Below, piece by piece: positions 238-27,805 of a stretch of DNA of 35,187 nucleotides. This stretch comes from Bacteroidales bacterium (GTDB lineage: Bacteria > Bacteroidota > Bacteroidia > Bacteroidales > CAIWKO01). Made by a program: the position numbers and the translations under genes. The notes beneath the pieces were generated by a model, which was not told the DNA's origin, made no database searches, and saw nothing but the letters and a program-made list of their open reading frames with translations. Within the stretch, counting starts at the first letter, position 1; the number at the start of each line of letters is the position of its first letter. The DNA is taken from NCBI GenBank assembly GCA_035389045.1, contig DAOORA010000048.1:1-35187 (forward strand). Direction: 5' to 3'.

Positions 238-245
238 ATTTTTAG

Positions 246-319
246 TAGCGGGGACGAGAGTTGAACTCGTGACCTTCGGGTTATGAATCCGACGCTCTAA
301 CCACCTGAGCTACCCCGCC
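246..319 (-). tRNA. tRNA-Met (CAT), probably elongator; CCA not encoded
   Basis: Reverse complement is GGCGGGGTAGCTCAGGTGGTTAGAGCGTCGGATTCATAACCCGAAGGTCACGAGTTCAACTCTCGTCCCCGCTA. It forms a full cloverleaf with anticodon loop TTCATAA. Confidence 0.95.
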
Positions 320-479: not shown

Positions 480-2021
480 TCAGGATTCAAATTTCCAGAC
501 TGTTTTTCCGGTTTGTACATCTATACATATTCCGCCATATTCGCCAAAAAAGAAGATGATCTGGTTTCCTGACCTTGTGATTTTAACATATCTGGCATCA
601 TTGAAGTAATAATTGTTTTCTATCATGTCGTCAATATTCGGAAAATCATGCTGCCTGATCGTGAACAAAGTTCTTCCTGTAACATCTATACCGCTTATCA
701 GTACTTCTGCATCCTTGCTTATCGCCGTTTGATGCATGACGATCACAAGAGATTCATCGAAATACATGATATTGGCGCTCAGGAAATACGTATCACTGCA
801 AAGCGGAATAAGATCAAAATGCTCATATCCATAATTATTTCGTTTATCCAAATAATATCCAGCATTAAGGCTGTTTGCTCCCGCCAGGTTTGTGAGCGTT
901 CTGAAGCTATTGGTATCTGCCGTCCTGACTACATACAACTGATGTTTTTCAACGGAATTCGGAACGGCTGAAAGAGCAAAAACGAACTTGTTGTCTTTAA
1001 TAAAACGGTCAGCTTTTTCCTGGGAATATTTATACAACTCATCTTCTGTATAAATAAATTTATTTTTCAATATATCATAATAACATTTATTTCCGTCGTT
1101 TGTAGTTATCGCATACATATCATCCGTGCTGAATTTGTTGCTTGTATATTGTTTTTGTATTTCGGAAATACCTTTGGCAAAAATGGCATCGGTTTTCTGG
1201 AATGTTTGAATATCTGATATTTTTTTGAAGTTAACAGCATCATATATATCCATAACGGGTGTTTCACCAATGCCGACGATATATACATTTTTACCTTGCT
1301 GATGGATATAGAAATTTGCAGAATAGTTGTCAACATTAGCTTTTTTATCCTTAATGGCTTTGACCTTATTATTCGTGAGCGGATCATAGATATTGATAAA
1401 GAGCTTACCGGACGATTTGCAGCGGACTTCCCAGATATTTCCCGGGTTTTCGTCCGTTTTTATAAATTGTACATCATTGAACCTTCTGTCCGACGTATCA
1501 AATAAATTGATAACTAAGGGCAAAACAACAGAAGAAGATATTATCGGTACATAAATAAGCAGAAACCAGTTGATTTTTTTCGATTTTCCGGAGGCAACAC
1601 GTATGGTCTGAGGAATGACAACATGATACTGATCCTTTGGATCTATATGTACATTGATATTCTGGCCAACGGTGTAGACGTTCTGGTTTTCAAATGTATT
1701 TTTTATGGTAATACCCGTAACATATTCCCGGTCGGGATGGCCGACAAGCAGTTGTAATACCGTATAGCGGGCGCCGGCCGGTTTTACAGCCAAAATTCCG
1801 GCTTTAACCTTAGGTGTTTCGTTAATAATTTTTAACTCTTCCTTATCCCTTGCTCTTTTTCTGAAGATTACGAAGAGAATAACAGCTACGAAAACCACCA
1901 GTGATGCAGCCAATATCAGATAGGAAGCGGTGCGGTTCTGAATAAAAAAAACAGCGTAAATAACAACTAATATCAGGAGTATAAAAAGAAATAATTCCGT
2001 AATTTTTGAAATTCTGCTCAT
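480..2021 (-). CDS. Membrane protein, 513 aa: two N-terminal TM helices, a small beta domain, a third TM and a large beta-rich C-terminal domain
   Basis: Hydrophobic segments lie at about aa 8-27, 33-53 and 152-174. The C-terminus ends in a propeller-like blade (GGICIDVQTGKTVWKF). It is the last gene of the kinase operon. Confidence 0.75.
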   Translation of the reverse strand: MSRISKITELFLFILLILVVIYAVFFIQNRTASYLILAASLVVFVAVILFVIFRKRARDKEELKIINETPKVKAGILAVKPAGARYTVLQLLVGHPDREYVTGITIKNTFENQNVYTVGQNINVHIDPKDQYHVVIPQTIRVASGKSKKINWFLLIYVPIISSSVVLPLVINLFDTSDRRFNDVQFIKTDENPGNIWEVRCKSSGKLFINIYDPLTNNKVKAIKDKKANVDNYSANFYIHQQGKNVYIVGIGETPVMDIYDAVNFKKISDIQTFQKTDAIFAKGISEIQKQYTSNKFSTDDMYAITTNDGNKCYYDILKNKFIYTEDELYKYSQEKADRFIKDNKFVFALSAVPNSVEKHQLYVVRTADTNSFRTLTNLAGANSLNAGYYLDKRNNYGYEHFDLIPLCSDTYFLSANIMYFDESLVIVMHQTAISKDAEVLISGIDVTGRTLFTIRQHDFPNIDDMIENNYYFNDARYVKITRSGNQIIFFFGEYGGICIDVQTGKTVWKFES

Positions 2022-2041
2022 CTATAAATTATTTATGTTGT

Positions 2042-2755
2042 TTATATCCCCAGGAATTCAACAGCCACTGCGCTTATGTTATCATCGGAGCCAAAGGCAA
2101 GGCAGTTTTCTTTTATCTTTATTATTTTTTCATACAGGCTCCGGGATGAGGTCAGTATGGATTTCACTATTTTTATGTTCAGCGATTTAAACAAGCCGTC
2201 GGAACATAACAGAAAAATATCGTTTTTCAGTAATTCCGGTTTGACCCAATCCGTATTGATTTTTAAAATATTGTTGTTTCCACCGAAATAATTGATCAAT
2301 GGGCTGTTTGTTTTATTTTCATCGCTGACTTCATCCGAAGAGATTTTTAACAGCATATCATTCCGAAGCAGCCATATTTCAGAGTCGCCGACCTGTATAA
2401 AGTCGACAAAATCGTCAAATGCGATCATTCCGGACAAGGTACAGGCACAACCTTTTTTTGAATTATCACTTTCCGATACAGCAAGCAGCTGACTGTTTGT
2501 ATTATATAAAATGCCGCTGATATCCTTAAAATTTTCGGGTACAAGTTTTAACAGTTCCGATAATACAAATGCCGAAGCAAAGCCGCCCGCATTGTTTCCT
2601 CCGACGCCATCGGAAACAAAACACAGGCATTTTTCATTTTCTGTTAACAGTATCTCACCCTCGTTGATCAGCGCCCCATTGACCAGGATATTATCTTCAT
2701 TTGATACATATTTACCTGTTCCTTTGTTTGTAAAACCGCTTATATTGAATTTCAT
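2042..2755 (-). CDS. PP2C/PPM-family Ser/Thr phosphatase
   Basis: Motifs NEDN, SDGVGG, QVGDS, LLCSDGL and DDNIS. Confidence 0.92.
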   Translation of the reverse strand: MKFNISGFTNKGTGKYVSNEDNILVNGALINEGEILLTENEKCLCFVSDGVGGNNAGGFASAFVLSELLKLVPENFKDISGILYNTNSQLLAVSESDNSKKGCACTLSGMIAFDDFVDFIQVGDSEIWLLRNDMLLKISSDEVSDENKTNSPLINYFGGNNNILKINTDWVKPELLKNDIFLLCSDGLFKSLNIKIVKSILTSSRSLYEKIIKIKENCLAFGSDDNISAVAVEFLGI

Positions 2756-2766
2756 AACACCGATGT

Positions 2767-3408
2767 TTAAAGATCTTTTTTAGTTTCTGATATTTCCACC
2801 ATGCTGTTACTTGTCATACATTTCGGACATATTTCATAATAGGTTTCCGATTCAAAACCACAACCTTCGTTACATTTATACCTGCGGTGAATCTGTGCAT
2901 CAGCCTGTTCGCTGACAGCGCCCGTCATTTCAGCATTTCCACTTTCTTCGTACTGGTATTGCACCAGAAAAGCCTCTTTGCCAAGAAATAGGATGCTGTT
3001 GTTTTCTATCCTCTGCGGCTCTTTTGAACAATCAATTTTATTCACGCCATAAAATGTACCGTTCAGTGAGCCTTCGTCCTTCAGATAATACTGGCCGTCA
3101 ACAAGTTTTACCGAGCAGTGTTTTCTGCTGATGACATTTTTTCCGTTGACAATAATTCCTGAAAGCAATTGCGATCCGGTATTTTCCCGGCCCAGAATGC
3201 AGTATGGCCCGTCAATTACAATCGTCCCGGAATTTTGCTGATATATCAGTTTTAATCCGCACAACGTTCCCTTACTTTCATCAGTAACTTCTTCAGACAC
3301 CACAGTATCATCAAAGGTTGTGAAACAAAAAGAACACTCCGCCGGCCTGGATTCGGCCTTTTCAAAAAGGTTTGTATTGGAACAGTTCGGACAAATGATC
3401 TGAAACAT
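2767..3408 (-). CDS. FHA-domain protein with N- and C-terminal Zn-ribbon motifs
   Basis: FHA signature LGR...ISRKH...GSLNGTF. CPNC/CSFC at the N-terminus and CNEGC/CPKC at the C-terminus. Confidence 0.9.
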   Translation of the reverse strand: MFQIICPNCSNTNLFEKAESRPAECSFCFTTFDDTVVSEEVTDESKGTLCGLKLIYQQNSGTIVIDGPYCILGRENTGSQLLSGIIVNGKNVISRKHCSVKLVDGQYYLKDEGSLNGTFYGVNKIDCSKEPQRIENNSILFLGKEAFLVQYQYEESGNAEMTGAVSEQADAQIHRRYKCNEGCGFESETYYEICPKCMTSNSMVEISETKKDL

Positions 3409-3422
3409 AATATCAACAATAT

Positions 3423-4037
3423 TTATACTATTCGAAAACCGGGTTTAACAGATGACAAATTAGTTACCATTGTTTCTATTTCGCCTTTGGCAGGTATGCC
3501 GGCCATGTACACAACATCTCTCTCAATATTCAGCGACCATTTTTTATCAGGATCCGCCATATCAACTTTACGGGCTTTATGTTCAGCGATCTGGTATACC
3601 GATTGGTTTCCCGACCCCTTCAAAGAACTGTTTGACGGCAGGTTTTGTTCATAACGGCCGTCGATGATATAATCCAGGCAGTTCATGAATGACTTATCAG
3701 GAAACATCTGCTCCAGTTCCGGTAAATAATATCCTGTATAACAAAGGAGGTTCAGCGCCGTTCTGCGTTTTATCATCGACGCAAAAACCATAAGTTGCGG
3801 GTACTGATCGAACGGTTCCCCTCCGGTGATGGTAATACCATCATAATCCCTGCAGATTTCACTGGCCATCTGTGTTACAGAGAGCATATCCAGTGATTTT
3901 CCATTGTTTTCGGGCCAGGTGGATTTATTGATACAGCCCGGGCAACAGATCGAACAGCCCTGCACCCATATCCCCAGTCTTTTTCCGGGGCCAAGATTAT
4001 AAACAGGGTACTGAATTTTATTCAGTTGCCATTTCAT
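3423..4037 (-). CDS. Radical SAM 4Fe-4S protein, NrdG/activase-like
   Basis: GPGKRLGIWVQG-CSICCPGC (CxxxCxxC), GITITGGEPFDQ, YTGY, IDGRY and GSGNQ. Its start overlaps the ATPase stop (ATGA). Confidence 0.88.
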   Translation of the reverse strand: MKWQLNKIQYPVYNLGPGKRLGIWVQGCSICCPGCINKSTWPENNGKSLDMLSVTQMASEICRDYDGITITGGEPFDQYPQLMVFASMIKRRTALNLLCYTGYYLPELEQMFPDKSFMNCLDYIIDGRYEQNLPSNSSLKGSGNQSVYQIAEHKARKVDMADPDKKWSLNIERDVVYMAGIPAKGEIETMVTNLSSVKPGFRIV

Positions 4038-5890
4038 TCGAAGATTATTTTTGCATTCTTAAACTTCACCGAAATATTGCAGTTTTCGGTCTTGCGGCTC
4101 TCAAACATAAAATTGGTAAGACCGTTCTTTATATAAGTTTCTATCCTGTTCACGATACCGCGACCGCCCATTTCGAGGTTATCATCAGCACACTGTTTCA
4201 TAAATTCTTCAACAAATTCATCATCGTAGGCAAAATCGATGTTCCTGCTTTTTTTCAGGTTGGTTTGTATCACGTTCAGGTTTTTTATAATGATTTTCAC
4301 TGCGATCTCCGGCCTGATATAATCGAACACAACAAAGTTATCCCCGAAGCGGTTGAATATTTCGGGGCGGCCCAGCGTGCTGCCGAAAAACGACTTAATT
4401 TCATCTTTGATCTTTTTTTCAATAGTCTTGTAATCGTCTGAATAAAGGACATATTGTGCCCGTTTACCCGAGCCGTCGTCTTTGAACATCCCCAGATTGC
4501 TCGTAAACACGATCAATGCCTGTGAAAAATATACCGTTTCGCCCTTCCCGTCTGTAAGCCTCCCATCATCGAGAATCTGTAAAAATTTATCAAAAACTTT
4601 CGGATGGGCTTTTTCGATTTCGTCGAACAAAATAATGCTGAAAGGTTTTTTGCGGACCGCATCGGTAAGTTGGCCTCCGGCTTCATAGCCGACATATCCG
4701 GGTGGGCTTCCGATAAGTTTTACATCGGAATTGCTGTCGTTGTATTCGCTCATGTCAAAACGTATCATGGCATCTTCATCGCTGAATATCAGCTCGGCCA
4801 GAGACTTTGCCAGTTCGGTCTTGCCGGTTCCTGTCGGCCCGGCAAAGAACAATACTCCTTTAGGTTTGTTTGAATGTCTGGTTTTATCGATGGAATCCAT
4901 CCCGAGTTTCGACCTGCGCACGATCTCCACAGCTTTTTCAATGGCTTTTTCCTGTCCCAGCACTCTTTTACGGAGTTCATTCCCTGCTTCCTCAACTCTG
5001 GAATAATCAAGTTTTTCCCACGGATTTTCCCTGACGCCGTACTTAAAAAGTTCCACGATCTCTTTCATCCGGTTGATATGCATTTTCTCCTGCCTCGAAA
5101 TGGTTATCAGGTTTTCCAGTTCGCGGTTGGGAAAACCTTCGGTCAGGTCGGGAAACACTTTTCCGATTTCCTTAAGGTCGGGTTCTTGTCCTTCGGAATA
5201 AAATAAATGATGACGCTGCCAGAAAAAACGTTCACGTTCTTCCCTGCCCGGCCGGCAGATATTGATTTCTTTAGTCAGCGGGTTTTCAATAAGCATCCAG
5301 GCCGGAATATCGTTCAGTTTGTCGCAGATGAAAATCATGATGTTGCGCATCCCTTCTTTATCGGAAAAAGCAAACGACTCCTGTGCCGCCTTGACCATCT
5401 TCAGAAAAGTGGGTTTTATAGTTTCTTCCAGGGCATTGGGATTGGAAGTGAAACGGGAGGCAAAATTCAGGATACAGGCCGTCAGCTTATTGGTGTTGCC
5501 CATCAGCTCACGATAAAAGGCCACGGCATCATCCAGTTTTCTGGCTCTGGCATTTTTCAGATAGGCTTCGGCATCCAGGTTTTTAAGCTTCAGGGAACTG
5601 CAGACATTGTCGGTGGTAATCGTGTTATCTGAGGAAATCAGTGTCAAACCATCTACGACATCAAAATAACTTATCAATTCAAAATTCTCTAACAACAGGT
5701 ATTTCTGCAACAACTCCCTTATATCGTTGAATTTGGCATATTTAAGTTCAGAGGCGTCTTTGGCTTCTTTGTAATTGACGGGGAAATAATAGCAATCATA
5801 AATATTTCCGAAAAGAAAAATTTGTGACTTCAGCGCCTGAAATCGTTTGACTTCCTGCAACCATGCCGGAAAAATGTCTTTTGTTTCCAT
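4034..5890 (-). CDS. AAA+ ATPase with a ClpA/B D2-type C-terminal module and a divergent N-terminal domain
   Basis: Walker A GPTGTGKTELAK, FDMSEY, pore loop GSPPGYVGYE, Walker B LFDEIEKAHP and LQILDDGRLTD. No second Walker A or Clp N-domain is visible. Confidence 0.9.
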   Translation of the reverse strand: METKDIFPAWLQEVKRFQALKSQIFLFGNIYDCYYFPVNYKEAKDASELKYAKFNDIRELLQKYLLLENFELISYFDVVDGLTLISSDNTITTDNVCSSLKLKNLDAEAYLKNARARKLDDAVAFYRELMGNTNKLTACILNFASRFTSNPNALEETIKPTFLKMVKAAQESFAFSDKEGMRNIMIFICDKLNDIPAWMLIENPLTKEINICRPGREERERFFWQRHHLFYSEGQEPDLKEIGKVFPDLTEGFPNRELENLITISRQEKMHINRMKEIVELFKYGVRENPWEKLDYSRVEEAGNELRKRVLGQEKAIEKAVEIVRRSKLGMDSIDKTRHSNKPKGVLFFAGPTGTGKTELAKSLAELIFSDEDAMIRFDMSEYNDSNSDVKLIGSPPGYVGYEAGGQLTDAVRKKPFSIILFDEIEKAHPKVFDKFLQILDDGRLTDGKGETVYFSQALIVFTSNLGMFKDDGSGKRAQYVLYSDDYKTIEKKIKDEIKSFFGSTLGRPEIFNRFGDNFVVFDYIRPEIAVKIIIKNLNVIQTNLKKSRNIDFAYDDEFVEEFMKQCADDNLEMGGRGIVNRIETYIKNGLTNFMFESRKTENCNISVKFKNAKIIFE

Positions 5891-5891
5891 G

Positions 5892-7427
5892 TTATTCCAA
5901 GTATAATTTTTTTATTTGTTCTTTTCGCTGCTGTTGCTGGTGATCCTTTTTGATCGCAGCACTTATGGCCTCAGGGATGGTGATCATCGAATCAGGGCAA
6001 ACCGGTTTTTCGCTCTCCAGGTCAATAGTGACACCCATTTTTTTCAGATCTCCCAGCACGGTCATAAAATCGCTGCAGGTCGTTTCCATTTCGTGCAGTT
6101 TCATTTTTTGCTCCTCTACGCTCAGCTCGCTTTTTTTCTGAGGTATTTCAAAAACGTACCTGAAAGAGCCGTCATCTTTGAATTTAATATTAAGCAGGTT
6201 TTCCTGCCCGGGCGCTCTTAAATAAAAATCATTGTTTTTTTCAAAATCAATGACGTTAAGGTCTTCCATCACCTCATAACCCAGGTTTTCGAAATTTAGA
6301 ATGATCTGGCTCTTGATAAAAAGATGTTCTTTCTTTTTTATAGCCGCTTCTTCTTCTAATTCCCGGTTCCTGACAAATAACGACTCTGTATCGCTTTTCA
6401 GGGCGCTCAATTCTTTTTCGGATACTTTGGTATTGTTTAAAAGTTTTAAGGATTTCTTCAACAAGCGTTCTTTGTCATGATACAGTGATTTGTCAATCCG
6501 GCAGGTATTAAGATGAGCTATAATATCGTTAATAATCAATTTGTTTTTGCGTGATGATTCAAGTTCCAGTATCCTGTCGTGCAGTTCCTGATAAAAAAAC
6601 AAACTGTTCACGCTTTCGCTCTGCTTCAATTTATTAAATTGTTCTATATATATACTGCCGGAAGCGGCATCATCACAATCTCTGATAAGAGAATCAATTT
6701 TTTGAGACACCCTGTCAATTTCAGAAAGCGACGGATCTTTCACTTTTTTCTTTTCATTAACAGGACTCTGCATATTATCAGTGTTAATGATCTTATCCAT
6801 CAGCCCGAGCCTGATTTTTTTCACAAAGTTTTCTTTTTCGCTAACCTGATCCATGACCTTGTCTTTCTCATCAGCCGACTGCTTATCAAATCCCCAGTTA
6901 AATTTTACAATTTCAGGCTCATAATCAATGACGCCGTATTTCCTTTTTGTCTCTTCAACCCATGCGGCATTTTCCTTTGAAAAGTTTTTATCCAGGTTGT
7001 CCGAAGTATCGGTTTTGAACTTCTTGAAAGACTCACGGGCGTTTATAACAAACTGTTTATAATCCTTATAGGCTTTACAATCATTTTGCTTTGAATGAAA
7101 ATCTGAAAGAATGGTTTCACATTTTTCAATAGTTTCAGATAACATCTTTGCTCTTTTGTTGATCCGGGCGGCTATCGTCCCGTATGTTTTCGCATCGAAA
7201 GTCCCTTGGTAATCAAAAACCATTGTTTTTAATGCATTTTCTATGTCGGCGGAAATTTTCTTAAAACTTTCACCGCAATCAAAATGCACGTTTAATTCTT
7301 CCTCATCGATGACGGCCTTCTGAATTTCGATGCTTAAACTGGTCAGTTTTACCTGTAACCGCATTAGATCCTTCAGGCTGCCTTTAAATGCATCCAAGGT
7401 ATACCTGATAACTTTTGGCCCGCTCAT
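5892..7427 (-). CDS. Hypothetical charged, helical/coiled-coil protein (511 aa)
   Basis: Long K/E-rich ORF whose stop lies 1 nt from the ATPase start. It begins MSGPK. Confidence 0.8.
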   Translation of the reverse strand: MSGPKVIRYTLDAFKGSLKDLMRLQVKLTSLSIEIQKAVIDEEELNVHFDCGESFKKISADIENALKTMVFDYQGTFDAKTYGTIAARINKRAKMLSETIEKCETILSDFHSKQNDCKAYKDYKQFVINARESFKKFKTDTSDNLDKNFSKENAAWVEETKRKYGVIDYEPEIVKFNWGFDKQSADEKDKVMDQVSEKENFVKKIRLGLMDKIINTDNMQSPVNEKKKVKDPSLSEIDRVSQKIDSLIRDCDDAASGSIYIEQFNKLKQSESVNSLFFYQELHDRILELESSRKNKLIINDIIAHLNTCRIDKSLYHDKERLLKKSLKLLNNTKVSEKELSALKSDTESLFVRNRELEEEAAIKKKEHLFIKSQIILNFENLGYEVMEDLNVIDFEKNNDFYLRAPGQENLLNIKFKDDGSFRYVFEIPQKKSELSVEEQKMKLHEMETTCSDFMTVLGDLKKMGVTIDLESEKPVCPDSMITIPEAISAAIKKDHQQQQRKEQIKKLYLE

Positions 7428-7464
7428 ATATCTTTTTATCCCCCTGTTAATTACTAAAAATCAG

Positions 7465-9672
7465 TTATTTGATGTTTTGAAGCAGGATCAACAATACCAT
7501 TGCCAGTGATAACACGAAGGCTGCTATGAATATACTATTGTTCAGCATGAAGTTTTTTTTATGCCGGGCAATAAACAATTTTTTTGCAGCTTCCAGAGAT
7601 TCTTCGGAAAAATTGATGTCTTTATGTTCTTCTTTTACAAAACTTAAAAACGATTGAGCGGCAGGATTTGCAAACATCATGTTTTTGGCTGTATATATGA
7701 ATCCCTCCTTTACCCTGAATGGAAATTTTTCCTGTATGCCTTTTTGTTTCAGATAGGCGTCAAGGGTGCTGACGATTGAATAATGAACATGGCATACTTT
7801 TTCAAATGCAATATATTCAGGGTGAATTTCAGATTCAGCATATTTTGAAAGCACACCGCCGACAAGGTCCGGAAGTTCAGTATTGACAAGCCCCGCCATG
7901 TTAAAAACTTTCAGCAGTGTATTTCTTTCAAAGGTATGATAACGGTCACGAAAAAGGTCTTTGTTTTTTAAATAAAAAATAGTCAGTTCTTCAGCGGACC
8001 TGATGGGTTTATCCGCATTATCAGGATAAGCTCTTTCATTGTTGAACGAATAGAACAACTGTATCATGTACTGATAATTTGGCTGTGCCTTGTTAGGGAA
8101 AATCTGGGCCGGCAGAAAGGTACGGAAGTCAAATTCATCAGCAATATGAATGACGGAGGAAGCGGGATTATAGAGTTTATTTAACAGAGCCGGAATAGTT
8201 TTATTTTCCGGGTTCAGGTAATGCAATACTTTTAAACTGTATTCCAACTGAAAAAAGTATTTTGACAACATATCGTGCCCGGTAAACCGGTATACGCTGT
8301 CAATTTTACCCATATAATTCTTTACAACACCGGCGACATTATCCGTATCGCTGAAAGAATAACTTGTGTTTTCGATTTTCAGCGGGCGCTGAGGCAGCAG
8401 AAACATCGTTACGGCGGCCTGCAGTATAGTTTTTCCGGAAAGCCGGTATATGCTGACCAGTTTTTCAAAACGTTTACGTTCAGGAATACCGATATAGTCG
8501 TCAAGCCAGTCCTTTACCAGCTTGTACACTTCGGGGTCTTCAAAAAAATCCTGAAACCAGGATGACTTCGATTCTATGTAACGGATGAATTCTTCAGCGG
8601 TAGAAATCACAACCGGTCCTATTTCCAGCGGTTTTGTATCAGAAGATTCTTTCATGCGGTATGACACATGGACATCTTCGCCCTTCAGCCATTTTTCCAC
8701 CTCTGTGGCTCCCCAGCGGTTCTGGTGATTGACCAGGGTAAGGCCTTCAATAATTGAGTTCAATCGCTTGAGCGAAGGGTCAAATGTGATGATGGGGACA
8801 AGGTTGTATTGCCGTTCGACGATTTCTTCAAATTTGTCTTTGTCTATTTCACGGTAAAACTTATCCGAAGTCAGCGCTTCCGGGTATACCAGGTGGAGCA
8901 GTACCATGCCGAATGAATAGTAATCATTTTTTTCTGATACTATGCCTCTGGCCTGTTCCGGCGGAAGATAGAATTCCGTTCCTTTGATCGTGGTTGATTT
9001 ACGTAATTCTTTCTCGGATTTCAGATCATAGGCCTTGGCCGAACCATAGTCACCCAGAACAATATCGGTCTGCTCCTTATCTTTATACAGAATATTCCCG
9101 GGTTTCAGGTCGCAGTGGTATATTTTATATTCGTGTAAGCGGGTTATGGCAAGAAACAGTTGAGGAATTATTTCTCCTTCAATAAATCCGGGGGTATACT
9201 TTTTTTTAAAATCCTCCACTTCCAGTATATTGCCTCCTTCGGCAAATTCCGAAATTTCATAGCAATAGTTCCCGCCGTATTTTTCATCCCCTGTGCCATA
9301 ATCAATAAGCCTTAAAATATCCGGGTCGTTAATATTTTTAATCCGTTCAAGCGCCAGGCTGTTGGGCTCTTCAGCCTCATCGTTAAATTCGTAATAAAGT
9401 TTCAATGCATATTTGTTGCCGGAACTATCAGTAATCAAAAAAACATTGGCTTCGCCGGTACCTTCTGAGATAACTCTTTCTACTGTATAATCAACCTGTT
9501 TAAGCCTTATAACTTCACCGGCATGGACACCCTGTGAATTACCGGTCTTTTTGTTTTCATTTGAAGAATATAGGCCGGTCTTTTCCCTCTCTGCATTATT
9601 ATTATAAATACCGGTTTTACTGTTGATATTTTCTTCTGCACCAGTATCAGCATTGTTGTTTTCTTTTTTCAC
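7465..9672 (-). CDS. Hanks-type Ser/Thr protein kinase with a C-terminal TM anchor
   Basis: GTGEANVF, ALKLY, HCDLKPGN, DYG, GTEFYLPPE, DYYSFG and a hydrophobic C-terminus. The start is placed at the in-frame GTG at 9672 (VKKENNN) because the ORF-track start at 9762 overlaps a TATATTTG promoter box. Confidence 0.9.
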   Translation of the reverse strand: MKKENNNADTGAEENINSKTGIYNNNAEREKTGLYSSNENKKTGNSQGVHAGEVIRLKQVDYTVERVISEGTGEANVFLITDSSGNKYALKLYYEFNDEAEEPNSLALERIKNINDPDILRLIDYGTGDEKYGGNYCYEISEFAEGGNILEVEDFKKKYTPGFIEGEIIPQLFLAITRLHEYKIYHCDLKPGNILYKDKEQTDIVLGDYGSAKAYDLKSEKELRKSTTIKGTEFYLPPEQARGIVSEKNDYYSFGMVLLHLVYPEALTSDKFYREIDKDKFEEIVERQYNLVPIITFDPSLKRLNSIIEGLTLVNHQNRWGATEVEKWLKGEDVHVSYRMKESSDTKPLEIGPVVISTAEEFIRYIESKSSWFQDFFEDPEVYKLVKDWLDDYIGIPERKRFEKLVSIYRLSGKTILQAAVTMFLLPQRPLKIENTSYSFSDTDNVAGVVKNYMGKIDSVYRFTGHDMLSKYFFQLEYSLKVLHYLNPENKTIPALLNKLYNPASSVIHIADEFDFRTFLPAQIFPNKAQPNYQYMIQLFYSFNNERAYPDNADKPIRSAEELTIFYLKNKDLFRDRYHTFERNTLLKVFNMAGLVNTELPDLVGGVLSKYAESEIHPEYIAFEKVCHVHYSIVSTLDAYLKQKGIQEKFPFRVKEGFIYTAKNMMFANPAAQSFLSFVKEEHKDINFSEESLEAAKKLFIARHKKNFMLNNSIFIAAFVLSLAMVLLILLQNIK

Positions 9673-9761
9673 CAGATTCTTATTTTGAAATAGTGCTATT
9701 TTCTCAGACCAAATCACACACCTGTGTATTTTTAAGGTATAAGTCGTTTGCTTCCCTGACA

Positions 9762-9769
9762 CAAATATA
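9762..9769 (-). promoter_or_regulatory. Bacteroidota -7 promoter box (TATATTTG) for the kinase operon
   Basis: Matches the TAnnTTTG consensus about 90 nt upstream of the proposed start. Confidence 0.5.
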
Positions 9770-10027
9770 TAAAATTTGTCGGCTAAAAATAAATTTGCAT
9801 AAATTTTGTTATGACAATCTAAATTTATTTATAATATTAACAATAATTTGATATTTGGATGTATTCATCACGATCAGCATGACCGACGATGAATGCAAAA
9901 TCCGGACAGCATATTCCTGACATCATCCATATATTGTCCGGATAGTAAAACATTTATTATTATAAACCTCACTGTCTGCTGATTTCGAAACAAAACGCAG
10001 CCAGACTTATGGTATATATAAGGAATA

Positions 10028-10978
10028 TCACTCTTTAATTAATTTCATTTGACTTGTTTTGCTGTCTCCGACCAGCCTGATGATATAAACACCTTTGGAT
10101 AAAGAGTTCACGGCAACATCACCTTTTCCATCGATCAGCATCGTTTCCAGCACGCACTCACCAATCATGTTGTAAACCCGCAGGTGCATCTTTTGTTTAT
10201 CAGGACAGGCAACACTGATCCTGTGATGTGCCGGGTTTGGAGTGACAATCACTGACTCCGGGGTATCCATTTCAGTGGTCCCCGATTCCTTGTTGCAGAT
10301 ACATCTGATCGAAAATCCACTGAGCATTTTGTCGTGGTAATAGCGGTATATCTGTGTATTATCATAGCTCAGAAGCCGGTCCCAGGCGCCAGAGACATCA
10401 TATTCATCCGCAGTCCACCAATAGCCATAGTTTCCTATATCAGTGTACGAGGCATAGATATAACGATAGCCGCCGGGAATGGCGCTGAAGCCGCTGCTGT
10501 TGACAGCACCAGTATTTGGACTGGTCCAGTGTGCTGTTCCCGCCTCCTTAAGTTTCCCGCCGATATCGGTCCCGCTCAGTCCGGTAGCTGTGGTATCCAC
10601 GGCGCTGTCCAGATATTTTTCCATGATATTCCATTCGTGTTCACCCGGCACATGCCAACCCGCAGGGCATATACCGCCGGGGTCATTTGCTGCTGCCCAG
10701 TTGTACAAAGCGCCATAGACAGGAGCATAAACAACAGAATCATTATTATAATAACAGCGGGCACCCGAGGCAATATTTGTCCATGCAGTGGGATTGATGA
10801 CGTTCGGAACCGTCATGCCATTATTGTACCTTGTCACTCTAAGATTTTCCTTCATCCATATCTGTGTGCCAATGGTTACGGTGTTATATACATTGCCGTC
10901 GATGTCGGTCACCGTCTGCGCCATGCTGTTACTTACCAGTATTGTAATAGTTGTAAAAAAAATAAGGATTTGTTTCAT
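10028..10978 (-). CDS. Secreted FISUMP (Fibrobacter succinogenes major paralogous) domain protein with a T9SS type A sorting domain
   Basis: Signal peptide; DIDGNVYNTVTIGTQIWMKENL, YGALYNW, CPAGWHVP and GFSIRC. The C-terminal domain reads TPNPA...VYNMIG...LSKGVYII...KLIKE. Confidence 0.9.
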   Translation of the reverse strand: MKQILIFFTTITILVSNSMAQTVTDIDGNVYNTVTIGTQIWMKENLRVTRYNNGMTVPNVINPTAWTNIASGARCYYNNDSVVYAPVYGALYNWAAANDPGGICPAGWHVPGEHEWNIMEKYLDSAVDTTATGLSGTDIGGKLKEAGTAHWTSPNTGAVNSSGFSAIPGGYRYIYASYTDIGNYGYWWTADEYDVSGAWDRLLSYDNTQIYRYYHDKMLSGFSIRCICNKESGTTEMDTPESVIVTPNPAHHRISVACPDKQKMHLRVYNMIGECVLETMLIDGKGDVAVNSLSKGVYIIRLVGDSKTSQMKLIKE

Positions 10979-11015
10979 GGTTGTTTTGTTTCTTATAAAT
11001 GATTTTTAAAAACTT

Positions 11016-11176
11016 AGAAACTGTTTTGATTTTATGTTACATAAGATTTATGATGGATTTTTTAGCGAAACGAAGCAGATTTTGCAGACATAGTTTATCC
11101 TATGTCGAAAAATCTAACGAAGTTGCAGCATAAAAGACGCATAAAGATATGAAAAGACAAAATCAAAACAATTTCT
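11016..11176. mobile_element. MITE-like palindromic element (about 160 bp)
   Basis: Terminal inverted repeats AGAAACTGTTTTGATTTT (from 11016) / AAAATCAAAACAATTTCT (11159-11176). Internal hairpin AGATTTT-GACATAG..CTATGTC-AAAATCT. Confidence 0.6.
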
Positions 11177-11788
11177 TAATCTTAATGGTATCTTATTAAT
11201 TCTGGATAAATCGTTTAAAGACCTGCCTCTTAAATTTTGCAACGCATACAAAATGAAGCATAAATCATTTACAATTTAATCAAAAATACACACGCAATAT
11301 CGCACTTTTGCAGTGTTTGTACAAAAATATTATTTTTTTTCTACAATGGGCTGAATCCCTATCCGATAGAAATTAAAATGTATTTAATAAAAAAATTAAA
11401 ATTTGTCAGGCACATATCTATTATTTTTCAGATACTGATTAATTCAAAAACATTATTCTGCCGAACAACACTGATAATGAAGCCACCGATGCCTTGCCGG
11501 AAGTGCTGTGTGCCTTGAACGGCATCTGTATCAGCAAGAATTTCAACCAGTCAAGTAAAAAAGTCTTTATTTTACAAAAAGAAAAAAATCCTGATTGGCG
11601 ACAGACAGCCGATGTCCCGAAATTGAGATATTTAAAAAAATCAAATAGACTTAATGATTTAAAAAATAATATAAAACTTCTCTATGGCTGTGTAACTTTT
11701 TATTACACAGAAATACTGAGGAAAAGCATAGGTTCTGAACAAACGCAAATTTGTGAATAATTAAGTTTGAAATCCGGTACTAATTGTT

Positions 11789-12250
11789 TTATTGAGGGAT
11801 GCCATATTCCAATCCGATTATTTTTTCATCATCCCAACCGGCAAACATAAACCTGGCTTTAAGAAACGACGGCGGCCCGAATTTTTCTCTGACATTGTTT
11901 GAGAATCCATAGCCCTCTGTCGGAATACCCCAGACATTTTTATCCAGTTTTCCGTCATTATCTATATCATGCAGCACGGCAATGGCATAATTGCCATAAG
12001 GCACTTTCTCAAATTTTATCAACTCCACATCCCTGCTGATTTTTGAGATACTTCCTTTGTATGGTTCATTTTCCGGAAAATCAGACGCACAGTTATACAA
12101 GGCCACCATAAGCTGCCCGATATTACTTTTAAACCCTTTGACCAGAACATACAAAGTCCCCGTTTCGGTTTTCAGAATTTTTTTCTCACTTTGCACAGAA
12201 AAAGCGCCCCCGGTGCAAATAATAAGTAAAACCCAAGCTAATTTTTTCAT
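11789..12250 (-). CDS. DUF2141-like exported protein
   Basis: Signal peptide; G.L.VALY, FEKVPYGNYAIAVLHD.D.DGKLD and GIPTEGYGFSNN...FGPPSF. Confidence 0.85.
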   Translation of the reverse strand: MKKLAWVLLIICTGGAFSVQSEKKILKTETGTLYVLVKGFKSNIGQLMVALYNCASDFPENEPYKGSISKISRDVELIKFEKVPYGNYAIAVLHDIDNDGKLDKNVWGIPTEGYGFSNNVREKFGPPSFLKARFMFAGWDDEKIIGLEYGIPQ

Positions 12251-12420
12251 TTTTCCTGAATTTTATTCCTTTAACCCATAGTGTAAAGGATTCACAATGT
12301 TTTATACTAATTATCAGGGTTTTACTTTTCCTTTTCCATGTATTTGTTTTAATGACACTTATTTATTAAACGCCGGTAGACGACTTATTATTTTTCGTCT
12401 TGATAATGCATTTACATATT

Positions 12421-12767
12421 AGAATTTGTTTTGAATTTATCCCGTATTTTTGAAATTACTTCAATTGGCTTAGGCTGCCAGAAAAATTGCGAGTCACACA
12501 GCCGTTGTTCTGAAGAATTCCGAGGTTTTGAAAAGAATAAATGAACAAGGTGTCCCTGCCTGCCGAAACGGCAGTGCGGGCAGGGAAGTGTGGCTTGCTG
12601 ATTATGTTTTTCTTTTTTTCTAACCTTTGGCCAGTCTTACCTGCCTGCGTGCCGGACACTCCGGCAGGCAGGGACAAGTTTCTCCTTCGCTTCGTTGCAG
12701 GAGAATCTGCTCTGAATGACCGGAAAATCTGCTAATACAATGTGGTAATAAAATCAAAACAGTTTCT
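12421..12767. mobile_element. Second MITE-like element with related termini and nested CCTGCCTGCC palindromes
   Basis: Ends AGAATTTGTTTTGAATTTAT / ATAAAATCAAAACAGTTTCT. Internal inverted pair TGTCCCTGCCTGCCG (12551-12565) / CGGCAGGCAGGGACA (12662-12676). Confidence 0.55.
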
Positions 12768-12904
12768 TAGTTTTTACATTGTTTTAACCATGAAATGAGC
12801 CGATGACTGGGCACATGCTTGTGTGTAAGTCAGTAATCCGCTCAGTAGCCGCAAAAATTGTCGGTCTGCCTGATCTATAATGTTGAAATGAATAAATTTG
12901 TACT

Positions 12905-14077
12905 ATGAGAAAAGTTATTTCCACCGAGAAAGTTCCTATCAAACTCTGGCTTGACGCACCGGATGAAAACTCGTTGAACCAGGTTAAAAACCTTGCAAAC
13001 CTTCCCTTTGCGTTCAGCCATGTATGCCTGATGCCCGATGCACACGCCGGTTACGGAATGCCGATAGGCGGTGTGCTGGCAGCCGATAACGTCATTGTTC
13101 CCAACGCTGTTGGCGTCGACATCGGCTGCGGGATGTGCGCTGTAAAAACGGATATTAAGGCAGGTTCGTTGCCACAGGCTAAGCTGCGCCATATTCTTGA
13201 TGAGATCAGAAAACTTATCCCGCTGGGATTTGACCACCACAAGGAAGAGCAAAACGAAGAACTGATGCCGCAGAATTTTGATATTGATGAAATGAAAATT
13301 GTGAAACAGGAGTACCTGTCAGCATTAAAACAGTTAGGTACCCTTGGTGGCGGCAATCATTTCATTGAGATACAGAATGACGAGCAGAATTATATCTGGA
13401 TAATGATACATTCAGGCAGCAGGAACATCGGGCTGAAAGTGGCCGAATACTATAATAATAAAGCGAAAAAACTAAATGCCTTATGGCATACCGCTGTCAG
13501 TCCCAAAGCCGATCTGGCATTCCTGCCTTTTGAATCGGACGAAGCGCGAATGTATTATAACGAAATGAAATATTGTGTGGCTTTTGCCTTTGCCAACCGT
13601 AATCTTATGATGGAGCGGATTCAGAGTGTTCTGTCTGATAACGTTTCCCATATTGTATTTGATCCGTTAATAAATATCGCCCATAATTACGCAGCCTGGG
13701 AAGAGCATTTCGGGAAAAAAGTGGTGGTGCACCGCAAAGGAGCCACCTCAGCACGTCAGGGTGAAACAGGTATTATACCCGGCAGCCAGGGCACCCGGTC
13801 ATATATTGTCGTGGGGCTTGGCAACCATGACAGTTTCATGAGCTGTTCTCATGGCGCAGGCAGGATCATGAGCCGTAGCCAGGCCATAAAAAACCTGGAT
13901 CTGGAAGAAGAAATAAGAAAACTTGATAAACAGGGCATCATCCACTCCATCAAAAGCAAAAAAGACCTTGATGAAGCCTCGTCAGCCTATAAAGACATAC
14001 AAACTGTAATTCAGTCTCAGAATGATCTGGTCACCATAAAACATATATTAACCCCGCTGGGGGTAATAAAAGGATAA
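12905..14077 (+). CDS. rtcB: RtcB family RNA ligase (3'-phosphate/5'-OH)
   Basis: MPDAHAGYGMPIG, VGVDIGCGM, GTLGGGNHFIE, HSGSR, HNYA, HRKGAT, PGSQG, SHGAGR and DEA..AYK. Confidence 0.96.
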   Translation: MRKVISTEKVPIKLWLDAPDENSLNQVKNLANLPFAFSHVCLMPDAHAGYGMPIGGVLAADNVIVPNAVGVDIGCGMCAVKTDIKAGSLPQAKLRHILDEIRKLIPLGFDHHKEEQNEELMPQNFDIDEMKIVKQEYLSALKQLGTLGGGNHFIEIQNDEQNYIWIMIHSGSRNIGLKVAEYYNNKAKKLNALWHTAVSPKADLAFLPFESDEARMYYNEMKYCVAFAFANRNLMMERIQSVLSDNVSHIVFDPLINIAHNYAAWEEHFGKKVVVHRKGATSARQGETGIIPGSQGTRSYIVVGLGNHDSFMSCSHGAGRIMSRSQAIKNLDLEEEIRKLDKQGIIHSIKSKKDLDEASSAYKDIQTVIQSQNDLVTIKHILTPLGVIKG

Positions 14078-14098
14078 TTCGTAAACAAATTGATGAAT

Positions 14099-14135
14099 AA
14101 AAAAAAGGCTGTGAAAAGCATCTGATCTCACAGCC
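14099..14135 (-). terminator. Terminator between convergent rtcB and tRNA-Arg
   Basis: GGCTGTGA (14107-14114) / TCACAGCC (14128-14135) with an adjacent A8 run. Confidence 0.65.
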
Positions 14136-14146
14136 CAACATCTAAG

Positions 14147-14219
14147 CGATCCCGGTTGGATTCGAACCAACGACCCACAGCTTAGAAGGCTGTTGCTCTA
14201 TCCCCTGAGCTACGGGACC
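14147..14219 (-). tRNA. tRNA-Arg (TCT); CCA not encoded
   Basis: Reverse complement is GGTCCCGTAGCTCAGGGGATAGAGCAACAGCCTTCTAAGCTGTGGGTCGTTGGTTCGAATCCAACCGGGATCG, with anticodon loop CTTCTAA. Confidence 0.96.
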
Positions 14220-14315
14220 TCAATAAGTTACATCCGTGTGTCGATGATTTGAATAACAATTTGCATAACAGAAAAAAGAACGACATTCAGAAAAAACATT
14301 TCAACAAACGGAGCG

Positions 14316-17524: not shown

Positions 17525-18622
17525 GGGTTTTGTTTATAAATTTTGATAACTTTTTCTGAGATTTGCGGCTCGCTGTGCGCTCGCCGCCACATAAAAAAAA
17601 TATATCATTAATGAAACCTTAGGCAGCAAGAAAGCGCGTGTGCAGGCTGAATTTCAAGGTTTTTGCAAAAAAAATACTACCTCCTGCCACTATAAAAAAG
17701 TCCTATAAATGCAGGAGTGTGGAGATTTTTTTTGCAAAACCCGTAGGGCTTGACCTTGCAAGAGCGGTGGCAGCTTAACTTTGCATAAGGTTTTATTAAT
17801 GAACTTCAAAGAAAATCTCTGTGGCATTAGGGTGTATTTTTTCTTTCTCTTCAAGGGTGGTTGGGTGGGGGTTGGTGGTAGCGTTGGCGGTTTTGGCGTG
17901 GTTTTTTGTTGTGTGTCAGGAAAAATAATATAGCTGTCGGAGGTACGGAGCAGCTTTATTATGTGCGGCTGCAAAAGTATAGCGAATGAACTGAGAGGAG
18001 CGTAACCGAGATCAGGTAGCGCAGCGGACTGTCGAGGTGGAGCGGAACGAAGTGAAGGAGCTATGCTTGCAGCAGCATGGCTTTACAAAAACCATGACAA
18101 AACCATTGGGTAAGGGCGCTTGGGATAAAAAAATTACGAAGTACATTATTGGTGCGATGGCAGAAAACTGATGAGGGCTGGCGTAGTTTTGTGCACGTGT
18201 TGCGGGAGCATCGGTGTGCTGAGGGCATAAAATCAGCGGGCGGCATTGGTTGCCACAAAGGAATAAGCTGCAATACCGCCGAAAGGTTTTGTTGGCTTGT
18301 GGGCAAATGCAATTATGAGTGAAATGAACGAAATCGAAATGAAATGTAGTGTTGCTGGAACGAAGTGGAAGCGTTAACGGAATGGAATGGAGATGTAGTG
18401 AATGAACTGATAATGCCATTACGGCGGTGAGTGATGATTTATTATTTTGAGGTTGGATTTATTGCTGCTCATGTATTTGTGTCCGGGAAGGGCTGCACTG
18501 CTGATTTTATTTGGGCGGGGAAACCGATGCTATTGGGTTTGGCAAAAACTATGACAGCCCGAAAATTACCATATCAAAGGGAAGTGTGGGTGGGCTTTTG
18601 TGCAGTGGCGGAGAGTGCGGCT

Positions 18623-18650
18623 ATTTTACATAATAACCATTATAACTGAC
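18623..18650 (-). other. dif/Xer-like recombination site 1
   Basis: Minus strand GTCAGTTATAA-TGGTTA-TTATGTAAAAT has an 11-6-11 layout. The right arm differs by one base from the canonical XerD arm TTATGTTAAAT. Confidence 0.7.
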
Positions 18651-18722
18651 AGGCAGCAACTCTGTCCAGCCTACCCAGCGGCGAAGCTATCGTTTACCTT
18701 ACGACCTGCTGCTTTCGCCTGC

Positions 18723-18750
18723 CTGTTTTATAATGCTTATTATGTTAGAA
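18723..18750 (+). other. dif/Xer-like recombination site 2, inverted relative to site 1
   Basis: CTGTTTTATAA-TGCTTA-TTATGTTAGAA has an 11-6-11 layout with a XerD-like right arm. Confidence 0.65.
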
Positions 18751-19261
18751 TAGCATACGATACTAAATCTTCTAAAATAGCGAATGGCAGACGGGCAAAA
18801 TACGTGGGTGCAAAGAGCATTTTGTCCCGGCTGCCTTAAAAAAATAAATTCATTAATAAAACCTAATTTTGACGACATTCCGGAATGCAAATCTTAGCCA
18901 GCGGAGAATAAATAAAAACGCTGCTCACTTTTTGCCTTTACTTTAAGAATTGTGAAAGGGAACAGGTTTAATTTGAGGAATTAAAGAGCTAAAAAGAGAA
19001 AACTAAGGTTATTTCACAGAAAATAAAAAATATAAGATATTATAAATCAACGCTTAAACCATTTATTTTTAGTTTTTCATTCAATTTTAACTTAAAAAAG
19101 GGGGTTATTTCACGGATTTTCAGAAATAAGGGAATACCTACGAAACTTGCGGCTGCCAATGGGCATAACCTTTTTCTCACTTATAAGTAAATTGAGTTAT
19201 TAGAAAAAAAACGTTAATAAAGTTAAATTATGTTAATAAATACAGCATTTTGTTAATAAAA

Positions 19262-19875: not shown

Positions 19876-19877
19876 AG

Positions 19878-20561: not shown

Positions 20562-20642
20562 ATAAGCAATTTATTTTTGTGAGTTAAAAAGAAGATTCAT
20601 GTGGGGGAATTAATCAAATAATAAAACAATAAATTTTTTAAT

Positions 20643-24406: not shown

Positions 24407-24414
24407 AAAAGTCG

Positions 24415-27798: not shown

Positions 27799-27805
27799 GA
27801 CAACT

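Follow-up and report, generated by a model that had tools for sequence, protein, structure and literature searches.

We analyzed a stretch of DNA (referred to here as the window) comprising 35,187 nt of contig DAOORA010000048.1 from a Bacteroidales bacterium (CAIWKO01; assembly GCA_035389045.1), which contains an operon of seven tightly packed genes, all on the minus strand, between positions 480 and 9762. These genes encode a tail-anchored Hanks-type Ser/Thr kinase (7465-9762; 765 amino acids from a GTG start), a coiled-coil protein of no known family that we refer to as CC (5892-7427; 511 amino acids), an Hsp100-like AAA+ ATPase (4034-5890; 618 amino acids), a radical S-adenosylmethionine enzyme (rSAM) similar to NrdG and to the activase of pyruvate formate-lyase (PFL) (3423-4037; 204 amino acids), an adaptor protein with a zinc ribbon on either side of an FHA domain (2767-3408; 213 amino acids), a PP2C-type Ser/Thr phosphatase (2042-2755; 237 amino acids), and an accessory membrane protein (480-2021; 513 amino acids). 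According to the coordinates of the open reading frames (ORFs), the spacings from the kinase to the membrane protein gene are 37, 1, -4, 14, 11, and 20 nt, with the start of the rSAM gene overlapping the stop of the ATPase gene by 4 nt. An initial annotation had described seven co-oriented genes with gaps of -4 to 37 nt, and the coordinates agree with it; profile scans with Pfam and NCBIfam also bear out five of the seven labels, namely, those of the kinase, ATPase, rSAM, FHA protein, and PP2C. The operon as first annotated ended at 9672, where the kinase gene has a second in-frame GTG. Since the 735-amino-acid product from that codon is close in length to the closest homologue, a 732-amino-acid kinase at locus L001, either start is possible.

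This gene set recurs widely. Searches of one genome per species found relatives of the ATPase at 47 loci, and searches of metagenomes found them at 315, of which the best 80 were used. Merging of near-identical copies left 107 distinct loci, and 75 of these belong to what we call type I, set by our own threshold of at least 47% ATPase identity. CC is present in 52 of the 55 type I loci that have at least 1.7 kb of upstream sequence, rSAM and the FHA protein are present in 61 and 62, respectively, of the 63 that have at least 1.4 kb of downstream sequence, and all six genes for kinase, CC, ATPase, rSAM, FHA protein, and PP2C are found in 27 of the 34 with long flanks. Recurrence in 75 distinct loci puts the arrangement far outside what chance would produce, and the unit proposed in the initial annotation is decisively syntenic elsewhere. 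The usual type I order is PP2C-kinase-CC-ATPase-rSAM-FHA; in the subclade of the window it is kinase-CC-ATPase-rSAM-FHA-PP2C, followed by genes for membrane proteins. Host names include Bacteroidota, Ignavibacteria, Chlorobiota, KSB1, Moduliflexus, Desulfobacteraceae, Myxococcales, Cloacimonadota, and Spirochaetia. One 3.7-kb contig was binned to an archaeon, and the ATPase in a record named Chloracidobacterium is 71% identical.

A second clade, type II (L121-L141), has ATPases of 38 to 42% identity, and their neighbors are again PP2C, a kinase, a zinc-ribbon FHA protein, and an NrdG-like rSAM, together with a protein of 410 to 565 amino acids without a Pfam family that is homologous to CC. 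Gene order in type II is permuted (kinase-CC-FHA-rSAM-ATPase-PP2C), and the FHA and rSAM genes overlap. A third clade (L138 and L142-L144; ATPase identity of 38 to 39%) combines the ATPase with a 235-amino-acid protein and a SpoIIE-type PP2C of 776 amino acids. In one genome, G045, the six core genes are intact and dispersed over three places (C25:17869-20350, C27 at ∼92.7 to 97.6 kb, and C27:28504-29115), with ATPase and FHA on one contig, PP2C, kinase, and CC on another, and rSAM alone among ordinary genes; the C25 contig is the one that appears as L003 among our loci. At L029 and L031, kinase genes split the operon into rSAM-FHA and CC-ATPase pairs. Together, the pairings of ATPase with FHA in G045 and of rSAM with FHA at L029 and L031, as well as the FHA-rSAM overlaps in type II, fit a role of the FHA protein as a hub. 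In five of the type II loci (L121, L132, L136, L137, and L141, at ∼700 to 9900), we also observed a conserved run of genes upstream of the cassette, encoding a peptidase A24-like protein, two larger radical SAM proteins (∼374 and ∼470 amino acids), a MORN-repeat protein, and a DUF5050 protein; L121, L137, and L141 have an additional ORF of ∼373 to 416 amino acids, which in L121 is a DUF4236 protein. This run may be a separate peptide-modification cluster, and the five loci may come from close relatives.

Among relatives the distribution of the cassette is patchy. The CC profile matches 4 of 61 related genomes, one of them that of the window. The others are two species of the genus, among 17 besides the window's own, and one genome among 38 from different families of the order, whereas 0 of 5 further genomes of the family have a match. 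A profile for rSAM separates the same four genomes (301 bits or more) from the rest (103 bits or less), in which its matches are ordinary NrdG-like or PFL-activase-like genes. Moreover, the cassette lies at different genomic places in congeners. As judged from these sequences, it is a real, horizontally spread six-part machine with an accessory seventh gene in the window, and it is old, with two deep clades retaining the same six parts.

The ATPase stands out for its conservation, with an identity within type I of 48 to 88%, which is unusually high compared with that of CC (18 to 58%), rSAM (39 to 62%), and the FHA protein (26 to 64%). Pfam recognizes AAA_2 (7.3e-52) and ClpB_D2-small (9.2e-06) in it, and its AlphaFold2 model (mean predicted local distance difference test [pLDDT] score of 86.7) aligns in Foldseek over ∼650 columns with two-tier ClpC, ClpB, and ClpA chains at E values of 3.5e-30 to 9.2e-26. 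The second tier (residues 300 to 618; 4034-4993) is a ClpB-D2-like motor with a D2-small domain. The first tier (residues 1 to 290; 5021-5890) has an AAA-like fold without nucleotide-binding motifs. A Walker A motif (GxxGxGK[ST]) occurs once per protein, in the second tier, in 37 of 37 family members, and in the first tier in 0 of 37. The initial annotation had called this protein a ClpB-D2 ATPase, which holds for the D2-like tier; it is not D2 only, since residues 1 to 290 form a first AAA-like tier that lacks Walker A. In the second tier, Walker A is invariant (G351, P352, T353, G354, G356, K357, and T358), as are most positions of the pore loop GSPPGYVGY and of Walker B (FDEIEKA), and it is this tier that is the predicted active motor. 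Even so, many residues of the first tier are invariant, suggesting a role in docking.

Models of known Hsp100 proteins cover only part of this ATPase: the ClpB model TIGR03346 scores 266 bits over residues 303 to 617 (cutoff, 1232) and a ClpV1 model scores 218 bits over residues 296 to 601 (cutoff, 885). The ClpP-docking loop [ILV]G[FLM] is not conserved, being present in 11 of 37 members. A search for longer proteins containing the first tier, which could be fused forms, found none, although this is weak evidence. We rejected as cassette members loci L038-L047 and the viral loci L056-L062, which match the second tier only (32 to 46% identity); the ORFs of L038-L047 (757 to 1228 amino acids) suggest ordinary Clp genes. 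No full-length member of the family was found on viral contigs, where seven relatives matched at the level of the second tier only (35 to 38%).

The rSAM belongs to Fer4_12 (8.8e-30) in Pfam, and among NCBIfam models it matches NrdG (TIGR02491) at 105.3 bits and 2.7e-30, under the cutoff of 126.1 bits, and the PFL-activating enzyme at 4.1e-11. Its best solved relative by sequence is likewise a PFL-activating enzyme (5e-10 in the PDB). The cluster motif CxxxCxxC (C28, C32, and C35; 3933-3956) and the SAM-binding GGEP (residues 72 to 75) occupy invariant columns in 33 rSAM sequences. A C-terminal extension of ∼45 residues with an invariant proline in a GIP motif is specific to the family, and the ordinary NrdG-like genes of relatives match only positions ∼12 to 174 of the rSAM model. 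The nearest characterized relatives of rSAM abstract hydrogen from a protein-bound glycine. In the window's own genome, which is 96.3% complete, neither NRDD (PF13597) nor Gly_radical (PF01228) gave a match, while control genomes did. Since no NrdD or glycyl-radical domain is present there, the enzyme has no recognizable substrate in its own genome, and the term "orphan" in the initial annotation was well chosen. A search for longer proteins containing rSAM, as possible fused forms, gave two distant ones, P0262 and P0263; their additional portions match no Pfam family and do not resemble the kinase or FHA protein of the window, and we set them aside.

CC has no match in Pfam, NCBIfam, or PADLOC (PADLOC-DB 2.0.0 [2023], used for all defense profiles). 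Its AlphaFold2 model (pLDDT, 83) consists mostly of long helices, with N-terminal strands and a C-terminal alpha/beta part. No PDB entry matched CC by sequence, Foldseek gave no PDB row at an E value of ≤0.001, the Atlas gave unnamed clusters only, and a wide VIA-align search returned generic helical matches (Z ≤ 9) without a convincing solved lookalike. As a lead only, the N-terminal strands and the C-terminal alpha/beta region weakly resemble KA1 (Z, 7.0 to 7.7). Homologues form 141 clusters among 1.84 billion representatives, the full-length ones having ∼490 to 530 amino acids, and none was found on plasmids. CC starts with the pentapeptide MSGPK (7413-7427). Across 26 type I sequences, M1 and S2 are invariant and G3 and K5 are at least 90% conserved; the type II homologues also start with MSGPK, again with invariant M1 and S2, and the exceptions, at L030, L034, L134, L135, and L139, start with MSH. 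The two versions of CC align in hhalign with a probability of 98.5% (E value, 3.7e-15; 256 columns). In the conserved C-terminal alpha/beta region (residues 372 to 470; 6018-6314), residues common to both clades include the invariant Cys451 and the near-invariant Gly465.

The kinase domain (Pkinase, 8.6e-25; residues 93 to 355) contains HCDLKPGN and GDYGS, two catalytic motifs whose conservation extends across 32 kinases of the family. A hydropathy scan predicts a single transmembrane (TM) segment at the C terminus (residues 743 to 761 of 765; 7480-7536), and since just 4 residues follow it, the kinase of the window has no outer domain. Homologous kinases elsewhere are longer (900 to 1350 amino acids) and are receptor kinases, since their membrane helices precede SH3_3 (SH3b) or FGE-sulfatase-like outer domains; the membrane sensing proposed in the initial annotation fits this architecture. 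Some loci carry two or three kinase paralogues. The juxtamembrane region (residues 356 to 742) had no PDB match by sequence. Against the NCBIfam model of MAD6 (MADS) the kinase scores 55.4 bits (cutoff, 460), and the corresponding PADLOC mad6 match spans the kinase domain only. At L005 (5125-8460), with a similar layout at L081, we observed a single frame of 1111 amino acids with PP2C_2 (24 to 194), Pkinase (344 to 545), and SH3_3, an apparent fusion of the phosphatase with the receptor kinase.

The N-terminal tail of the kinase contains two K-T-G-x-Y repeats (SKTGIY and EKTGLY; 9568-9621), which are candidate sites of autophosphorylation and FHA docking. Tails of type I kinases carry 2 to 6 copies of [DN]KTxxY. 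In 22 of them we counted 58 TxxY motifs, compared with 9.2 expected from shuffled sequences, and the motif density is 2.8 per 100 amino acids in the tails versus 0.32 per 100 amino acids in the rest of the proteins; ten further kinases were missed by the anchor pattern and lie outside this count, and by eye most of them carry the motif too. Type II tails contain R-x-T-x-x-[LM] repeats instead (34 versus 10.2 expected), so that the residue at position +3 from the threonine is clade specific, being Y in type I and L or M in type II. In classical FHA ligands, a threonine is followed at +3 by a residue that is fixed and either hydrophobic or aromatic, and the tail motifs look like putative FHA docking sites.

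In the FHA protein, the FHA domain (3.8e-10 in Pfam) is flanked on either side by a four-cysteine ribbon. The residues expected to bind phosphothreonine are largely fixed in 29 sequences, with G73, S94, N116, G117, and T118 invariant and R74 and H97 at least 90% conserved. The same sequences show C6, C25, and C28 of the N-terminal ribbon to be invariant and C9 to be nearly so, and all four cysteines of the C-terminal ribbon (C179, C183, C194, and C197) to be invariant. Weak NCBIfam matches point to TagH-type FHA (2.2e-05) and FhaB/FipA-type proteins. The phosphatase matches PP2C_2 (4.7e-07 in Pfam) and, below the cutoff of that model, the Stp1/IreP-type PP2C of NCBIfam (5e-26); 22 sequences show conservation of its DGxGG and DG motifs.

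The seventh protein differs from the others in its distribution. The initial annotation had treated all seven genes as one unit, and this stood for the six core genes; the membrane protein falls outside the core, since its family is limited to the window and four genome loci, namely, L001, L002, and L004, with 3 to 4 tandem paralogues each, and L008. Pfam assigns no family to it. TM segments are predicted at residues 9 to 27, 35 to 53, and 153 to 171, followed by a C-terminal domain of ∼340 amino acids (residues 172 to 513), which in an Atlas structure search resembles beta-propellers at TM-scores of 0.3 to 0.57, a lead only. The loci that carry this protein are those whose kinases end at the C-terminal TM segment without an outer domain, which suggests that the sensor is supplied in trans. 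In the window, the membrane protein is probably that sensor.

Kinase/PP2C/FHA switches are known to gate machines, for example, the type VI secretion system (T6SS). The logic of the cassette is closest to that of the T6SS threonine phosphorylation pathway (PpkA, PppA, Fha1, and ClpV) and of the TerY-phosphorylation triad (TerY-P; the von Willebrand factor A [vWA] protein TerY, PP2C, and kinase). As in the T6SS pathway, a receptor Hanks kinase, PP2C, and FHA would gate a machine that contains an Hsp100 protein. However, T6SS structural genes (sheath, baseplate, and Hcp/VgrG) are not among the Pfam-scanned ORFs of at least 100 amino acids in the window, nor among the recurrent neighbors at the other loci, in a search confined to the window and these loci. 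ClpV of the T6SS has an N-domain and two active tiers, whereas the ATPase of the cassette has no N-domain and no Walker A in its first tier, and the cassette has rSAM and CC where the T6SS has a secretion apparatus. With TerY-P the cassette shares a compact, mobile writer/eraser pair of kinase and PP2C. A Pfam scan of the seven proteins found no vWA domain, in agreement with the initial annotation, and because of this absence the cassette is not a TerY-P triad; it has FHA, AAA+, rSAM, and CC instead.

Esr, a threat-sensing system of Actinomycetales, is also near. In the available part of the preprint describing it, signals pass from a beta-propeller surface sensor to a kinase/phosphatase pair and an FHA output, some FHA output variants carry zinc fingers, and the sensors diversify; the route runs through MoxR and vWA proteins, with transcription or Esx secretion as the output (bioRxiv 10.64898/2026.09.08.750141). 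The logic of surface sensor, kinase/phosphatase, and FHA is thus like that of the cassette. MoxR and vWA are absent from the seven proteins in the Pfam scan, and the output of Esr, as far as this part of the preprint describes it, differs from the Hsp100-like ATPase, rSAM, and CC found here. The accessible parts of two further sources, Kaur et al. 2020 (PMC7159879) and a 2026 ParA preprint, place FHA, PP2C, and rSAM domains in other contexts and not in this set.

Individual parts of the cassette also depart from their known relatives. NrdG and the PFL-activating enzyme are the top matches of rSAM among profiles and in the PDB, and rSAM shares with them CxxxCxxC, GGEP, and a small size; it differs in its NrdG score below the cutoff, the ∼45-residue extension, and the lack of an NrdD or PFL-type partner in the genome. 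The ATPase has the two-tier fold, Walker A and B, GYVG pore loop, and D2-small domain of the Hsp100/Clp proteins ClpB, ClpC, ClpA, and ClpV, but no first-tier Walker A, N-domain, or middle coiled-coil insertion, and a coiled-coil protein, CC, is separately encoded next door. The ClpB disaggregase has two nucleotide-binding tiers, in contrast to the single Walker A of all 37 cassette ATPases. In PADLOC, the Dodola protein DolB (6.6e-22) and PDC-M37B (9e-31) match ATPase residues ∼277 to 466 only, in the second tier, and the profiles of their partners, DolA and PDC-M37A, match none of the seven proteins. No named system was matched in PADLOC, in NCBIfam, or in the literature, subscription journals and supplements aside, in line with the initial annotation, which knew of no experimentally described function for this combination. 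We class the cassette as a putative kinase/PP2C/FHA-gated machine whose output module we did not find described in the literature or databases.

As regards a role in defense, which the initial annotation had proposed, PADLOC gave no system-level match for the seven proteins and domain-level matches only for the kinase and the second ATPase tier. Of 220 flanking proteins of at least 100 amino acids, we scanned 145, from 22 loci; 25 had any match at 1e-10 and ∼8 of these matches were specific, numbers for which there is no matched control. The specific ones include a retron-type reverse transcriptase at L005, Cas6b and WYL as well as PDC-M03B at L023, PDC-S05 at L003 and L016, PDC-S01 at L010, and DUF4238-Pers at L019. 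Recurrent neighbors are two-component systems, ABC ATPases, methyltransferases, and type IX secretion cargo.

Within the window, positions 19369-30352 hold, on the minus strand, a complete BREX type 4 set, consisting of BrxP (27806-30352), BrxC/PglY (24415-27873), PglZ (22061-24406), and BrxL (20643-22064), and the PADLOC candidate pair PDC-M04A (DUF3800; 19878-20561) and PDC-M04B (19369-19875). These genes look like a separate integrated element, because they lie beyond a tRNA-Arg gene (14146-14219) and alongside a DUF3987 primase-like gene. With few specific flank matches and the BREX island as a separate unit beyond tRNA-Arg, a role of the cassette in defense is not established. The tRNA-Arg(tct) gene marks the inner edge of the BREX-holding region, which also has DUF6266, DUF6965, and the BT4734-N/DUF3987 primase-like gene; the arrangement (14146-14219 and 31039-33231) suggests an integrated mobile element inserted at tRNA-Arg. 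Matching of the flanking DNA (9800-14300) to five cassette-free genomes of the same genus, as a search for the insertion boundaries, recovered only the tRNA and short fragments. Directly before tRNA-Arg lies a stand-alone gene for an RtcB RNA ligase (12905-14077, plus strand; 2.4e-115), beside which no RtcA or RtcR was seen. Between 17560 and 19368, ∼1.8 kb contains no convincing ORF, no Rfam family, no tRNA, and only short scattered repeats, with a GC skew of up to +0.24 (18001-19000). On the other side, a tRNA-Met gene (245-319, minus strand; ARAGORN and Rfam) lies just 3' of the operon, with a terminator-like hairpin of 10 pairs (211-237) beyond it.

As the best explanation of these observations we tentatively propose a phospho-switch that senses the envelope and gates a machine of unfoldase and radical enzyme, with CC as its target. 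As their architecture suggests, an extracytoplasmic cue would be sensed by the outer domain of the kinase or, in the subclade of the window, by the separate membrane protein, probably through its periplasmic, propeller-like domain. The kinase would then phosphorylate the threonine of the [DN]KTxxY repeats in its own N-terminal tail, as the motif implies, and the zinc-ribbon FHA protein would dock on the phosphothreonine sites. Through its zinc ribbons, the FHA protein may gather or switch on the ATPase and rSAM, consistent with the observed gene pairings. From the adjacency of the two genes and the invariant N terminus of CC we infer that the ATPase remodels CC, as the initial annotation had also proposed. 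It would engage CC probably by its Met-Ser(-Gly-Pro-Lys) N terminus and then unfold or remodel it, the Walker-less first tier probably serving as a docking platform and the second tier as a pore-loop motor. More speculatively, rSAM might use radical chemistry to alter CC or a client that is being threaded, and this alteration would be the output. PP2C would reset the switch, as is known for this family. This explanation is supported by the intact catalytic or binding motifs of the kinase, PP2C, FHA protein, second ATPase tier, and rSAM, and by the co-inheritance of the parts in two deep clades, also when unlinked, as in G045. Further support comes from the synteny of the type I loci, the occurrence of CC and rSAM in the same four genomes, the clade-specific threonine repeats of the kinase tails, the receptor architecture of the kinases and the kinase or sensor paralogues of some loci, the invariant start of CC, and the lack of NrdD or a glycyl-radical domain in the window's own genome.

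Several points weigh against such a phospho-switch. In the third clade, no rSAM, kinase, or FHA protein is detectable, and the ATPase can therefore presumably work without them. A glycyl-radical motif of the RVxG[FY] type was not seen by eye on alignments of the core proteins, and Gly3 of CC, which might have been a universal radical site, is ruled out as such, since the five loci that read MSH have His at this position yet keep a seemingly intact rSAM. Hosts named for the loci include Polaribacter, Algoriphagus, and Maribacter, which we take to be aerobic, and oxygen-sensitive glycyl radicals would be unexpected there. Finally, the cassette contains no recognizable domain of a toxic effector, and the flanks consist mostly of ordinary genes, without a clear defense-island signal in the proteins scanned. 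As the likeliest role of the cassette we consider an accessory one, in responding to envelope threat or stress, which would make it a conflict system in a broad sense.

A more specific version, to which we give little credence, would have the receptor kinase, via the phosphothreonine reader, license the Hsp100-type unfoldase to hand CC to the activase-like rSAM, which would install a radical or another modification, so that modified or cleaved CC becomes the effector against the envelope threat. Candidate sites of modification on CC would be the invariant N-terminal Ser-Gly or Cys451 and Gly465 of the head.

An unlikely alternative to the phospho-switch acting on CC is an anti-phage defense of the abortive-infection type, in which phage adsorption or envelope damage would act through the kinase on the ATPase and/or rSAM as a toxic effector. 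The patchy, cross-phylum spread (4 of 61 relatives, and the 71% identical ATPase of the Chloracidobacterium record) and the multiple kinase and sensor paralogues of some loci are what such a system might show, and the outer sensor domains of the FGE-sulfatase-like type, there called FGS, are listed in conflict systems in the available part of Kaur et al. 2020 (PMC7159879). At a few of the loci, the retron-type reverse transcriptase, Cas6b/WYL, or PADLOC candidates are neighbors, and in the window BREX type 4 and PDC-M04 are 9.6 kb away. However, that island is parted from the operon by tRNA-Arg and unrelated genes, PADLOC matches are at the level of domains and not of a system, and ∼8 of the 145 flank proteins scanned, out of 220, have specific matches, with no matched control. 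No full-length members were found on viral contigs and no CC homologues on plasmids, and sensing outside the cell is unusual among phage sensors.

It is similarly doubtful that the cassette is a regulator of envelope or cell-surface biogenesis unconnected with conflict, with ATPase and CC forming a membrane-proximal scaffold that would be remodeled on cell wall signals, by analogy with PknB/PstP/FhaA-FhaB of actinobacteria and StkP/PhpP of streptococci. Many of the kinases have SH3b-type outer domains, which often bind the cell wall, the FHA protein has its weak FhaB/FipA-type match, the head of CC is weakly similar to KA1 domains, which bind membranes, and the flanks are mostly ordinary. Yet so few relatives have the cassette (two species among 17 others in the genus, and one genome among 38 from different families of the order) that it is dispensable and not a core growth regulator. 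Its differing genomic places in congeners also speak against such a role, and rSAM would be left unexplained.

A still less probable explanation is that rSAM makes or alters a small molecule, such as a nucleotide-derived signal or antimetabolite, in the manner of viperins or QueE, and that ATPase and CC have a separate role. The Fer4_12-type fold, which is common with QueE and gives a weak PDB match (0.0044), would suit this, as would the lack of a recognized glycyl-radical motif in the partners and the occurrence in presumably aerobic hosts. But by far the best matches of rSAM are to protein activases (NrdG and PFL-activating enzyme in NCBIfam, and the latter again in the PDB), and it is inherited strictly together with its five protein partners, no metabolic gene accompanying it. 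That rSAM, as its sequence family would allow, activates a glycyl-radical enzyme encoded elsewhere (class III ribonucleotide reductase or PFL type) and sits in the operon incidentally is close to refuted by the lack of NRDD and Gly_radical matches in its own, 96.3% complete genome, by the ∼200-bit gap between family members and the ordinary NrdG-like genes of relatives, and by its linkage to the cassette in two deep clades.

The spread of the cassette across phyla, combined with its rarity within the genus, is the signature of an accessory and possibly conflict-related function. What appears to be gated here is a module for which we found no description in the literature, made up of an Hsp100-like ATPase whose first tier is dead, an rSAM of the glycyl-radical-activase type, and a family-specific coiled-coil protein. 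The putative docking code of TxxY in one clade and Txx[LM] in the other, together with the invariant N-terminal tag of CC, provides testable handles on this system. The orphan activase might show protein-radical chemistry put to a new use, also in hosts that we take to be aerobic.

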